Part shown: positions 3,001-58,109 of the stretch, piece after piece
Position numbering within the stretch: the stretch's first letter is position 1
Layout of the letters: every line of letters starts with the position of its first letter
Origin: Raja brachyura
Lineage: Eukaryota
Assembly: GCA_963514005.1 (NCBI GenBank)
Contig: OY740796.1
Coordinates: 14,198,001 to 14,262,000, forward strand
Reading direction: 5' to 3'
Length of the DNA: 64,000 nucleotides
Notes under the pieces: model-generated
Told to the model about the DNA's origin: nothing
The model's database searches: none
What the model saw: the letters and a program-made list of their open reading frames with translations, nothing else
Position numbers and translations under genes: made by a program

Positions 3001-5278
3001 TAGAGTGAGGACTAACACCAGGACTATTCAACATATCCCAAAGAGTTAGGTTAAGCATGGACCCATCCGAGTTACACATTTCATTTGGAGAAAGTGAATG
3101 GAGTTGGAGAAGTTGATCAATATGAGAATTAGTTCAGCCAGACTAATACGTGTGTTGATGATGGAATGGCCTCTATTCAAGCAAGAAGGGGCATCCTGAT
3201 GTGGAAACTGCTTAAAATGGTGAAGATTATCAGAGGTGTTAGAGATTCTTGTGGGAAGGAAATGGACTAGGATGGGCAGGGGGGTAGTAGGATGAAGTTA
3301 ACATAGAAATAAGGTATAACATAGATCAGTACAGCACAGGAACAGGCCCTTTAGGGCCATATTATCCATGCTGAGTATGATGCCAAGTTAAACTAATTTC
3401 TGCCTGCACATGATCTATATTCCTGTATTCCCTGCAAAACTATGTTATATCTAAAAGCACTCTAAATGTCCCTGTCATATCAGTTCACCACCATTCCTGG
3501 CAGTGAGTTCCAAGCAATCACCACTCCCCATGTTGAAAAAAAAAATGTCCTGCATATCTCTCTTAAACTTGCCCCCTCATCTTCAAGCTATGATTTATAG
3601 AAGTAAGTTTGGTAGGGCTCAAGCATGCTGAAACAATGTGCGTGCTGTTGCAATCCTGCCTGTGGATCTCTTGGAGTAAGTGGAAGTGGGCTAATGACTG
3701 CCTGGGAGATGGTGGCCAGATATTCACTGGTCCAGAGGGTGGTCAGCAATGTGCCTGTGAACGGACATTTAGACTCTGCAAGATAGAGATGCATTTGCTA
3801 AACCACAACAGCTCCACCATTGTAATCTGGTTTGATGATGATCTTGACTTCTTGCTCTTTGTGAGCAGAAAGATGCATGTTCAATTGGACGTAGGTTGAA
3901 GTAGGTAAGTGGGAGTGAGAAATTTTAAATGGGCATAGCTACATCGGCAATTCGTGATTACATTTCTGCCATGTTACAATATATGGAAACACAAAATCTG
4001 GAGTTTGTCGTAGACTTGTTTGACGTAGAGGTTTAGGTGAATAGTGTAATGAAAGAGACAATATGAATATTTTTCAGAAATTTAATGTCATTAAGAATGG
4101 CTGTTTTAAGAAGAACCACCATGATAATGATTTTTTTCACTATGGTAGGATTGTAAACTTTTTTTGATTCTGCTTCTACTGGCTGTAGATATTCAAATGT
4201 GTTGTGTTGTTTTTAAAACAAATATATATGACGTTTCTGCCTGATATTATTGAGCCTCCGTTCATGTAACTATAAGAAGCTACCTGCAGCATATGAAAGT
4301 AATACCGTCTGGATCATTTAGATGAGTTTCCTGAAATCAAGGAATAGTTTTATAAAGAATTATGGATGTGAATCTATATTTTGCCACATGACAGTACTTA
4401 ATGCATTGGTAAATATAAACATGTTCATAAAATATGTGTTCATTAATGCTTGTAACTTTTTGGTGACCAATCCTTTGGTTTAGATGCTTCCAATAAAGAG
4501 GATTGTGAGTTGATCCTTTGAAAACACATTCCAATCAGTCCTACTTCTGTTTGCATTCTTGAATTGTTTTGTTTTAAACCTGTGTTACAATTCTAATCCA
4601 CACCAAAAAAAATACTTGAGGATCAGGCATTGTCAGTGTTCATTTGAAACTTGGAAGAGACACAACCCAATTTGAGACGAATGAGAGAAAAATATTACAG
4701 AACCATGATCATACTGCAGGTACTGTGGGCTTGTTCTGCTGACCACGCCATAGGAAGGATATGTTAATTTTAGAGGAGGTACTTAATGGATTCAACTGCA
4801 CTACCTGAATGCCAAAACTTAAAGTGCAAGGAAAGATTACACAAATGACGATTGCGTGGCCTCGAATTTAGAACTAGGGATGATTTATTTTGAAGTTTTC
4901 ATCAGGCCAAGGGGAAGTGAGAGGGTAGATGGCAAATTTGATTTCACTACAGTATTTACATATTCCAGAATAAGGTGAAATCGCCCAATAGTTCAAGCTT
5001 TCAGGAATGAAGGTAGAAAACAATTGTTCATGCAGAAGGTAGAAGAAATTTGGAATACTATAAAAGAGGCCAATTAATTTTTTTTTTTTTTAATTGGTAC
5101 ATAACAGGAATATAAAATGTGGGAAATGTGCTAAAGAAGTCAGGTCACAGATAAGCCATTTTCCTACAGGCTTGCAGAACTAAATGGCCTATTTTCTTGT
5201 GTTTTTAATTGATGCTTTAAATGTGTTTGAAAGGGACCGCCTTCCCATATTTCTTTGGGGTTTTGGAAATATTGGTTA

Positions 5279-46684: not shown

Positions 46685-46802
46685 ACCCTATCCCTTTGTG
46701 CTCTTCTACTCAAAATTCAATGAGGTGGAGATTTGTGTTGATGCCCGGACGTTCGGGAATGATGCTCGGTTCATTAGAAGGTCGTGTGCCCCCAATGCAG
46801 AG
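46685..46802 (+). CDS. SETD5: SETD5 exon, SET domain core ([39 protein letters not shown])
   Basis: ORF 46674..46880, tttccag| acceptor, GAG|gttagt donor, 118 nt. Confidence 0.96.
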
Positions 46803-55124: not shown

Positions 55125-56685
55125 TATAATGACTCTTAACATTACTGAAAACAGTCACTGCTGGCTATACTGCTGTAAATGATGGGAGTGTTTTAACTCG
55201 GCCAGAACTATTTCTGTGACAAGGAAACTGTGCACTTGCACAGTGTTCTACAAATTAGGTCCACATACATTTGAAATACAGAGTGCTGACTATAACTTGA
55301 AGGTAGACAAAAATGCTGGAGAAACTCAGTGGGTGAGGCAACATCTATGGAGCAAAGGAAATGGGCAATGTTTTGGGTCAAGACTCTTCTTCAGACTCAA
55401 GGCTGACTATAACTTAGTGTTTTCCTGTGTATATGTTAATACGGCATTACCAATCTGACTGCTGTTATAAATCAGGTTTTTTGTTAGAAATGAGCAGTGA
55501 TGTACAGTCCTCATGATCCATTGATTTGCTATTTATAGATCGGTGTACTTGTGAGTTTGGTCGGTCTTGCTCAAATCTTTTGATGAAAAATATCTTTTAT
55601 ACAAATGCAAATTGAGGAACCAATCAATGCCTGTATAAATATCATGATCAGTTTCTAGACTTTTGTGTCATTTGGCCTCCTGTTGAGTACAGTTCTCTAA
55701 CACAGCTCCACTTCTATGTTTCAAATGTTTACGCTACTTTTAGATTTCAATACAAATCACATTTTCTATTGCTGGATGATATATTTTGCATTTAGGTAGT
55801 TCTATACTTATTAAAGTATAGAACTACCTAAATGTTTAGTAATGCATTCTGATGATTTTAGGACATGGAGTGTATTACAGGGTACGGAGGAGAGGATCAT
55901 AGTGACATCCATGTTTTTTGTGATCTGTGGGAAGCCTCAGCCCTTTCTCTTTCAGATCATGAAGACATGGTGAAAACAGTTTATAACGGCTCCAATTTAA
56001 TGCTGGTAATACATCCGATATTTTTTCTAAGAATTATTCCACTTCAAAATAGATTTTGCAGTTGGTTATTTATTGATCTTAGTAAAGCAAATATGTGAAT
56101 GGTATATTATGCTCATTACCACCAATCAGTCAATGGTGATGTACCTTTTCTGGTTTGTTGACCTCGATTGAAGGCTGAAGTGTGTTGATGATGCAATTTG
56201 GGTATCTCCATTCCTAAGTCTATCTCTTACTCCAAAAGGCAACGGCCGCATCTAGTTATCCTGAGAAGGAAATAGATGCTTGTCAGCCTAGTCTGAGAAC
56301 ATTAACATACAATTGTTGAAGTTGCATATCGGTTCTGAAGGATTGTGCTAAGGATGTTAGAAACAGTTCATGAGCTTTTGTCTCCTCCTCGTGATAGACC
56401 ACATCTCAGGTTTATTGAATTCATTTTCACATCCTACCATGGTGGCATTTGAACACTCAAACTCCAGTCTGCTGTTTAAGGACCTGGCCATCATTTTACT
56501 GACTGTGTTTAGCAAGCTTTGTCTAATCAAGACTTACCTTCTACTTTTTGCAATAAAGGGAGCTGTTGCTATGGTCAGAATACATTAGTTGTATATAGCA
56601 TTATCCAAACGTTTGTTGTGTTGGAATCCGTCTACATCGAATAATTATTCAGCCCATCTAGACCCTGGCAACAGAGCCTTGCTGC

Positions 56686-56822
56686 TGCTTCTTGCGTATG
56701 GCGTGCACAGCCTAAAGTTGTAGAACAACCTGTTCTATTTGATCTTATTTGATTGTGCACGCCAGGTTGATTGCATTCGTTGAAACAGGGCGGACCATGT
56801 GAAGGTTGCAATCTCCCACCCC
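56686..56822 (-). mobile_element. 137-nt ribozyme-headed SINE-like retroposon
   Basis: 13-bp TSD AGAGCCTTGCTGC (56673-85, 56823-35), 5' HDV-like fold, 3' stem-loop and CCATACGCAAGAAG tail. Confidence 0.8.
56769..56822 (-). ncRNA. Minimal HDV-like (delta-like) ribozyme
   Basis: GGGGUGG(P1) GA GAUUGCA(P2) ACC(P3) UUCACAU(L3) GGU(P3') CCGCCCU(P1') G UUUCAA(P4 remnant) C GAA UGCAAUC(P2'). All helices pair in the nested double-pseudoknot order. Confidence 0.78.
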
Positions 56823-57095
56823 AGAGCCTTGCTGCATAGGTGTCGGCATGTGATGGCATTTCTTTCTGCTGATGAATACAAAAAAAATGTGCTGAAATTG
56901 TGATTGTACAGAAGCGAAGTACATCCTCACGTGTTGACATACCATTTCATTGCAATTATTATGCATTGTTGTGTGCTGTTATTAAACTTTCCAAGAACTC
57001 ATTCCAAAATAGTTTTAGCAGAATTAAACTGATTTGCCGGAAGGTAAAATGCCGTAGATACTGAAAATATTTGAGGAAAAACAGCTGTCTACATG

Positions 57096-57896
57096 AGTGA
57101 CAACATCCATCGCAAGACCACAGATTCCTATAGCTACCCTGACTATATCTCTTCCCACTCTTTCTTCCACATGGACTCTATTCCATTCGCTCAGTTCCCC
57201 TGTCTCTGACATATCTGCTCCAATGATGAGTTTTGCCACACAAATGCTTTGCAGTGTTTTTCTTCATCTTAATACATTGCTTCCATTCTGCCATAGTTGT
57301 CTATGCCCTTGACCACATCGCTTCCATTTCCCGCACCCTCCAGAAGCAATTCTCCTGCTTCTGTATTTAACAAACCATGAAGTGTAATTTATACTGCCTT
57401 CAACGAGATTCTAGTACCAAATACACATTTTCTGTCCCACACCGTTCCACGTGCAGAAAGGATTTTTCTCTTTGCAACTCCCTGGTCACTCTTCCTTTTC
57501 CTCAAACCAGTCTCACCTCACATCACTTTTCCATACAACCATAGGAGATGGAATACCTTCCCTTTTACTTCTTCCCTTCCTATCGTCCAAGGACCCAAAT
57601 ATCCTTTCCAGGTGAGGCAGCGATTTGTTTGCACTTCCAGTCTAGTGCTGTTCACTATTTGATGTTCACTGAGTAGCCTCCTTTACATTAGAGAATCAAG
57701 CACAGTTTGGGTGACCACGATTTGGCGCACCTGCTTTCAATCTGCAGTGATAAACCAAGATCATATTCTCTGCCACTTTAAATCTATGAACTGATATATC
57801 AAGGTGCAATGTAAACTTGTGAAATAGCACATTATCCTCTGTCTGGCCACACTGCAGCCTTCCAGACTTAAAATTGAATTCTGTTACTTCAGATAA
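57096..57896 (+). mobile_element. Old Penelope-like element fragment
   Basis: Collinear, in opposite orientation, with 47470-48340. Ends with a degenerate ...IEFCYFR* equivalent of the PLE ORF end. Confidence 0.65.
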
Positions 57897-58109
57897 CTTC
57901 CACTTTCTGTATTCTGTCTCTACATTTCCCTCATCAACCTGTCAACCACAAGACTCATTTACAGCTAATCCTTAGGACAGCCCTGGTCTTATCCCGCAGT
58001 CCTTGTGAATTCTGGGCTCATCCTATTGGAGATGTGCACTATGCCATATTCATCCCTCCTTAACCCACTCTGCAATCTAAAGCAAACTTGTTTTCTTTCT
58101 TGCTTTGTT

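Follow-up and report, generated by a model that had tools for sequence, protein, structure and literature searches.

A stretch of 64,000 nucleotides from Raja brachyura (assembly GCA_963514005.1, contig OY740796.1, positions 14,198,001 to 14,262,000 of the forward strand; here called the window, with positions counted from its first letter) carries on its minus strand, at 56822-56688, a 135-nt retroposon whose first 54 nt are predicted to fold as a minimal self-cleaving ribozyme of the hepatitis delta virus (HDV) type. Judged from its sequence, the element is almost certainly an internal-deletion derivative of a long interspersed nuclear element (LINE), made up of LINE nt 1 to ~78, a junction of about 16 nt and the final 41 nt of the LINE. 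The 54-nt head is very probably a true HDV-like motif, and the analysis makes it likely that self-cleavage is what defines the element's 5′ end. A wider proposal, that the Vingi-type clade of LINEs begins with HDV-like ribozymes and that in this lineage a 54-nt form lacking helix P4 gave rise to a promoterless 135-nt retroposon and with it to thousands of still-active vertebrate ribozymes, is offered tentatively, with doubt slightly outweighing confidence.

Read on the minus strand, the head (56822-56769) has the HDV topology that a first-pass annotation of the window had claimed, helix by helix. P1 (nt 1-7 with 30-36) opens with a G1-U pair and contains a second wobble, a joining strand J1/2 of 2 nt leads into P2 (nt 10-16 with 48-54), which is entirely Watson-Crick, and P3 (nt 17-19 with 27-29) closes a 7-nt loop, L3. 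A single P1.1 pair is available, with G37 facing C22, and a 6-nt loop, lying between G37 and C44, stands in place of P4. C44 (56779), the equivalent of the catalytic C75 of HDV, opens J4/2, and cleavage is predicted 5′ of G1 (56822). A strict HDV descriptor recognized this head as its sole match on both strands of the window; a looser one found the head plus one other match, and its background was 16 matches in 1.92 Mb of Markov-simulated sequence. The check by descriptor or Rfam model that had been suggested for this fold therefore succeeded in its first half and failed in its second, as Rfam models run at E up to 10 over 55500-58000 gave no match at the element. Nearest-neighbour folding of the head gave z = +0.42, by a method that cannot score a pseudoknot. 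Under the loose descriptor the fold alone is not decisive in 128 kb, and it is the boundary position, together with the evidence from the family and its homologues, that raises it above chance.

The boundary is set by exact 13-bp direct repeats, at 56823-56835 on the 5′ side of the element and 56673-56685 on its 3′ side, so that the predicted cleavage site coincides with the element's 5′ end, as had been annotated; a repeat finder extends the repeats to 14 nt, and the position of G1 is thus ambiguous by one base of microhomology. The repeats of the originally described 137-nt insert stand, but its length does not: 36 of 40 scored copies match query 1-135 only, and the two extra bases at the junction of tail and target (56686-56687) are found in the window copy alone, at a point where the rest of the family continues into its GAA-repeat tail.

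The expectation of many genomic copies was amply borne out. A DNA search of the source genome returned 1,883 candidates, 40 of which were scored and proved 96–100% identical and essentially full length, and the 12-nt P2′ motif has 11,781 exact genome matches versus 42 for a reversed control. Inspection by eye assigned 92 of the first 100 matches in the list for this motif to the family (28 being two copies repeated in a local duplication), and the floor of the family lies at roughly 10,000 copies. One intact 54-nt head has 364 exact occurrences (control, 0). Among 30 loci taken in genome order, 28 were family members, and their 5′ starts cluster at G1 as had been predicted, 22 falling exactly there and 26 within nt 1-3, with the remaining two at nt 13 and 16. 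Copies finish in a GAA repeat, and most are flanked by short target duplications of variable length (~8-14 bp). Loose read ends were found at the same two positions in all four public runs looked at, which carry three organism labels and one of which may be the assembly's own source. The sequencing-run search named no RNA holder of the element, and four of its 24 rows were used.

The ribozyme core is retained to differing degrees. All 18 pairs and the core residues are kept by 11 of the 30 genome-order copies, a proportion biased upward because the sample required an intact P2′ motif. Among 89 short copies, a sample that over-represents those resembling the window copy, U20 is present in 87, G25 in 60 and the catalytic C in 84. 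Together with the J4/2 adenine these make up the core expected of an HDV-like ribozyme, and the family and its homologues have it. The majority sequences of both short subfamilies retain every pair and every core residue. Fixed differences within the family are few: most short copies have U-G at a P1 pair where the LINE has U-A, and the remaining differences lie at unpaired positions (J1/2 and the second base of J4/2). As a separate observation, 40 of 70 short copies beginning at G1 are preceded by a T, a base with a background frequency of 28% (p 2e-7); since the preceding base sits in the target duplication, the excess reflects target choice. U at this position is also the best context reported for the genomic HDV ribozyme (PMC1874588). 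At G000:C1:14.56-14.95 Mb, two element copies are each repeated ~14 times in a local tandem duplication, and at L160:629-761 a short copy lies inserted within a copy of its own parent LINE.

The parent was found by means of a tail-anchored pattern that excluded ordinary short copies, followed by walking upstream. Two LINE copies (L151 and L158) carry both ends, and L158, head and tail included, measures ~3.1 kb. At their starts, six near-full LINE copies agree with element nt 1-78 at 82–89%, and LINE 3′ ends agree with element nt 95-135 at ~86–98%. In the window copy, the LINE-derived parts that follow the head are the remainder of the 5′ untranslated region (UTR; element nt 55 to ~78, at 56745-56768, aligned with LINE copies L155 and L157) and the LINE's last 41 nt (56688-56728), which comprise the end of the open reading frame (ORF) with its stop codon, a short 3′ UTR and the start of the GAA-repeat tail, and which are presumed to be the recognition site for the LINE protein. 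Between them, a junction segment of ~16 nt (56729-56744) replaces ~2.95 kb of LINE and contains a local 8-nt duplication of an A-rich UTR stretch, as seen in alignment A2 with row L174, which stood on the wrong strand, disregarded. Divergence from the majority sequence is 5.2% for the LINE (n=90) and 4.5% (n=15) and 5.2% (n=13) for the short copies, values at which LINE and short copies appear to be of the same age.

Pfam recognized an apurinic/apyrimidinic endonuclease (APE) domain (Exo_endo_phos_2) and a reverse transcriptase domain (RVT_1) in two LINE copies, and no RNase H domain. The two copies translated in full are frameshifted, and a single ORF is attributed to the parent from its intact relatives P0001 and L196, which share the layout. 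A PDB search with the C-terminal part of the LINE gave no relevant match. Vingi elements are described as having a single ORF with APE and reverse transcriptase, no RNase H, and a length of ~3 kb (PMC13708176). We call the parent Vingi-like on the basis of this architecture and of its terminal motifs. The partnership with an ingi/Vingi-like LINE sharing the tail, as had been proposed, was borne out, with both ends matched in L158, and an RTE or R2 partner is rejected, since the partner that was found shares both ends. The description of the element as a short interspersed nuclear element (SINE) lacking an RNA polymerase III head held only in part. No tRNA was found in the four loci scanned and the head is the LINE's own 5′ end, which disposes of a polymerase III or tRNA origin and equally of a head acquired separately as a SINE module. 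For the same reasons, and as Rfam models find nothing there, the element falls outside the strict definition of a SINE; it is instead a bipartite non-autonomous LINE of the short internally deleted element (SIDE) type, its 5′ and 3′ parts both being those of one LINE and its many copies, target duplications and tail marking amplification as a unit by retrotransposition. Other independent head-plus-tail deletion products were seen in both LINE families of the genome (L088, L288, L031, L049 and L056), and such elements therefore arise repeatedly.

The second of these families provides one of the comparisons by which the fold can be judged. It was recognized on the minus strand of L248, with a head at 3527, and its members (L272-L301, from 60 candidates) have a GAA tail and an 85-nt HDV-like head with a U-A P1.1 pair; among its 30 best heads, 19 can be aligned from the first position onward. 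Two further Vingi-like families were seen among L242-L271. Beyond the source genome, eight homologous proteins led to 50 metagenome loci, of which 25 were scanned upstream of the ORF (12,171 nt). The full pseudoknot occurs in sense orientation, 117-289 nt upstream of the protein match, in L192, L193 and L199-L201 (one element seen three times), and L194 has it upstream in sense without the first P1 strand. The head of L248 shows the same pseudoknot, again in sense, extending the range to 117-291 nt. No antisense pseudoknot was found in the 25 upstream regions, and a scan of all 50 loci on both strands (466 kb) produced two unrelated descriptor matches. The head of L192 scores 41.6 bits with the Rfam model HDV-F-prausnitzii (E 5.3e-5; gathering threshold 44) and 32.6 bits with HDV_ribozyme, both below gathering; that of L248 matched none of the Rfam HDV models.

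Across the four lineages the base pairs of P1, P2 and P3 differ, P1.1 is C-G, G-C or U-A, and U20, C24, G25 and the catalytic C are constant; L192 and L193 are separated by one compensated P2 pair. On this comparative evidence the nested double pseudoknot of P1, P2, P3 and P1.1 is supported by covariation. The conserved pairing that had been looked for among copies is accordingly present in related LINEs, and within the family there is little to covary. P4 regions of 18, 38 and 80 nt occur in the relatives, whose heads measure 68, 85 and 131 nt as opposed to the 54 nt without P4 seen here. As the related LINEs have a P4, the form lacking it is probably an independent reduction, separate from the phage ribozymes of this kind. 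The extra length of L199 was considered as an RNase H domain and rejected, as it gave no Pfam match; it is an insertion.

A life cycle can be proposed in which copies would be transcribed as passengers in longer RNA polymerase II transcripts, the first 54 nt would fold as a P4-less nested double pseudoknot and the RNA would cleave 5′ of G1, with C44 acting as general acid and a Mg2+ site linked to G25, by analogy with other HDV-like ribozymes. Cleavage would set the RNA 5′ end at G1 whatever the sequence upstream. The endonuclease/reverse transcriptase of the LINE would then bind the 3′ end and GAA tail, and insertion by target-primed reverse transcription, as in other retroelements without long terminal repeats, would leave duplications of the length observed. 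Any intact sense copy in a transcription unit would be a possible source, and the element's small size, together with its independence of any promoter carried in its own sequence, may be why it far outnumbers its parent.

Where the RNA begins can be approached through inverted insertions, which are frequent in both LINE families (L047, L050, L064, L078, L128, L132 and L136; L273-L301) and usually take the extreme 5′ end. An inverted piece is carried by 16 of the 81 LINE copies with a visible 5′ junction; 10 of the 16 reach head nt 3-30 and 7 begin at nt 72-80. Of 30 copies of the second family, 14 show an inversion of a 3′ piece, joined at most 25 nt from G1, and three of these may be duplicates. 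The pattern is that expected from twin priming on an RNA starting at or near G1, a result that locates the end and says nothing of how it is made. The inversions also hint that the two RNA ends may be held together during insertion. Inversions start at A-rich sites, which lie at nt 72-80 in the first family and for the most part at ~nt 190-245 in the second.

A number of observations weigh against a ribozyme-made 5′ end. The fold was present in only 6 of the 25 metagenome loci scanned, and L196, an intact close relative (47% identity), has no fold in its 277 upstream nt; L197, L198 and L203 are 5′-truncated relatives of L199. The descriptor used for the homologues demands pairing, so that pairing there is partly by construction and the evidence consists of position, strand and Rfam score. 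The minimal 54-nt head itself reaches no Rfam model. The chief structural doubt concerns J1/2, which is just 2 nt long; in an engineered HDV-like ribozyme a J1/2 of 0 nt was inactive and one of 1 nt had little activity (PMC4908430), though a 2-nt J1/2 also fits the head of the second LINE family. Long LINE copies begin raggedly: the six near-full ones start at head nt 2-10 and never at G1. One raw RNA run (840 reads, ~6% of the run) gave no pile-up of molecule ends, at G1 or elsewhere, and 253 of the 840 reads continue upstream of G1 into unrelated sequence. This run is a poly(A), fragmented library from another individual, analysed with strands pooled, and would miss a short RNA without poly(A); being poorly suited to the question, it neither supports nor refutes cleavage, and the reads that run upstream may be antisense or mutated passengers. 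In run X24 on L166, first-mate-plus-strand reads were 1.5 to 2.4 times deeper than the others, which, for a library stranded by the common convention, would mean more antisense than sense passengers in poly(A) RNA.

These observations leave room for other explanations, the foremost being that, with the same bipartite origin, the 5′ end is set by an internal promoter starting at +1, as in Pr77 of L1Tc, with the ribozyme secondary to it or working alongside. Pr77 combines the functions of internal promoter and HDV-like ribozyme (PMC4035085), and the lack of cleavage ends in the RNA run suits such a scheme; we nevertheless consider it quite unlikely, as the head sequence differs among the four lineages with pairing and catalytic residues kept, and a DNA promoter would keep sequence, not pairs. 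Slightly less probable still is that the pseudoknot is kept as a structural module, serving in 5′-end protection, binding of the LINE protein or the start of LINE translation, and that the form without P4 is too slow to matter as a ribozyme. Its short J1/2, single P1.1 pair and missing P4 would fit such a role, and R2 ribozymes have been assigned end protection, protein binding and translation-start functions (PMC13708176, PMC6765202). Against a structural role, none of the four lineages has lost the catalytic C, U20 or G25, the G1 end would still need a maker, and P4-less ribozymes of phages cleave in vitro (10.1101/2023.06.13.544163). Very improbable, finally, is a fold that is a mere inherited relic of the LINE end to which the short element owes nothing of its success: short element and LINE are so close in sequence that there has been little time to test constraint, and changes within the family are one-sided or unpaired, but the intact majority sequences of both short subfamilies, and the fact that short copies start at G1 more precisely than LINE copies do, argue against it. 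Self-cleavage remains the preferred account of the G1 end; in its favour, a nematode HDV-like ribozyme whose P1.1 has a single Watson-Crick pair is fast (PMC13635239).

The copy in the window is itself probably passive, being weak or dead, and that it is active seems unlikely. It has A in place of G25 (56798) and a further CpG change at 56781 (position 42). Of the 89 short copies, 60 have G and 24 have A at position 25, and position 42 shows the same behaviour, so that the suspicion of CpG decay behind the A in L3 proved well founded; loss of G25 here is what such decay would be expected to produce. In the nematode HDV-like ribozyme a G25A change abolished visible cleavage (PMC13635239), and it is for this reason that the window copy is judged weak.

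The host gene lies on the plus strand. An exon at 46716-46802 has as its best PDB match the SET domain of KMT2E (E 1.4e-11), and on this match the element is antisense to a gene of the SETD5/KMT2E family, in line with the annotation at the level of the family; the paralogue is presumably SETD5. Being antisense, the window copy would not cut that pre-mRNA. Elsewhere in the window, 55788-55835 forms a near-perfect AT-rich hairpin of ~20 bp with weak matches to microRNA models, possibly the remnant of an inverted-repeat element. The flank at 56653-56672, just past the target duplication, has what we take to be a likeness to part of the L1Tc hallmark, probably by coincidence.

The remainder of the element had been described as an 11-bp stem enclosing a 7-bp hairpin, and of these the stem was confirmed and the hairpin was not, since it adopts a different register in the near-consensus copy L166 and is thus copy-specific. 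The stem is a fully complementary 11-bp inverted repeat, with its 5′ arm (56754-56764) inside the part derived from the LINE 5′ UTR and its 3′ arm (56699-56709) inside the short 3′ UTR, and so joins the 5′-derived and 3′-derived halves; the 3′ 85 nt fold better than 200 of 200 shuffles (z = -3.74). In the parent LINE 9 of the 11 pairs are possible, 8 of which follow one another without a break, and in the short subfamilies one or two substitutions in the 5′ arm complete the stem, with 38 of 57 copies forming 10 or 11 pairs. Completion of the stem hints at selection for a compact RNA. Against such selection, one of the completing changes falls on a CpG, and pairing between the two ends of the LINEs is not significant: the LINE 5′ UTR pairs with the last 45 nt only marginally (17 of 300 shuffles were as good), and in whole-length scans the best 5′ window ranked 2nd, 3rd, 3rd, 11th, 13th and 16th of ~300 in six tests, ranks that chance may explain, one window of the second family having beaten all 300 shuffles for long-range end pairing.

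Internally deleted retroposons headed by a ribozyme are already known, and several known systems bear comparison. The NARTc, RIME and SIDER1/2 elements of trypanosomatids (L1Tc/ingi clade) are likewise short and non-autonomous, joining a 5′ hallmark to the 3′ end of an APE-type LINE, which in their case is an HDV-like ribozyme-bearing hallmark, with in vitro activity reported for NARTco and several SIDERs (PMC4035085). The present family differs in having a parent with no RNase H match, an animal genome as its setting and a floor of roughly 10,000 copies, and its head is 54 nt without P4, compared with a 77-nt hallmark that has one. The R2 SIDEs and R2/R1 hybrid SIDEs of Drosophila are likewise products of internal deletion, in which a 5′ ribozyme has been brought next to a LINE 3′ end, and are copied in trans (PMC3414825), but they are rare and confined to ribosomal DNA, whereas this family is dispersed, abundant and derived from an APE-type parent. 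Internal deletion of a Vingi LINE is itself recorded for the Vingi-1_EE derivatives of the hedgehog, alongside other bipartite LINEs (PMC5786205, citing Kojima 2011). The closest counterparts of the head are the minimal HDV-like and theta ribozymes, which share the absence of P4, the G1 cleavage site and a catalytic C at the start of J4/2; they are reported almost only from gut phages, beside tRNA genes, and none was found in the human, mouse and protist genomes searched (10.1101/2023.06.13.544163), whereas here the fold heads an animal retroposon.

In the literature consulted, Repbase and Dfam being outside its scope, there is no account of this family, of a ribozyme in a Vingi-type LINE, or of a P4-less HDV-like ribozyme in a retrotransposon or a eukaryote. 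It is quite possible that the family has been annotated before. The 'Ingi' examples of Ruminski 2011 may take in elements that are today assigned to Vingi.

The part of one survey that bears on these elements lists 5′ ribozymes for six LINE clades, with Vingi absent, and reports bipartite non-autonomous elements only for RTE, Ingi, Vingi and R2, three of which have 5′ ribozymes, leaving it open whether the association is causal or due to sampling (PMC5786205). A ribozyme in Vingi-like LINEs would complete that set, and it lends support to the view that a promoterless 135-nt RNA owes its ability to spread to self-cleavage. Vingi-1 elements serve in RNA-based gene insertion, where they retain their native UTRs (PMC13708176), and these UTRs are a possible site of such a ribozyme and an obvious place to check. 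The P4-less HDV fold, for its part, gains a eukaryotic setting and a concrete job. The share of intact copies, 11 of 30 in a sample biased upward, suggests thousands of candidate ribozymes in one genome, which form a natural mutational series; if the proposal is true, introns and UTRs that hold sense copies would be sites of cleavage in host transcripts.
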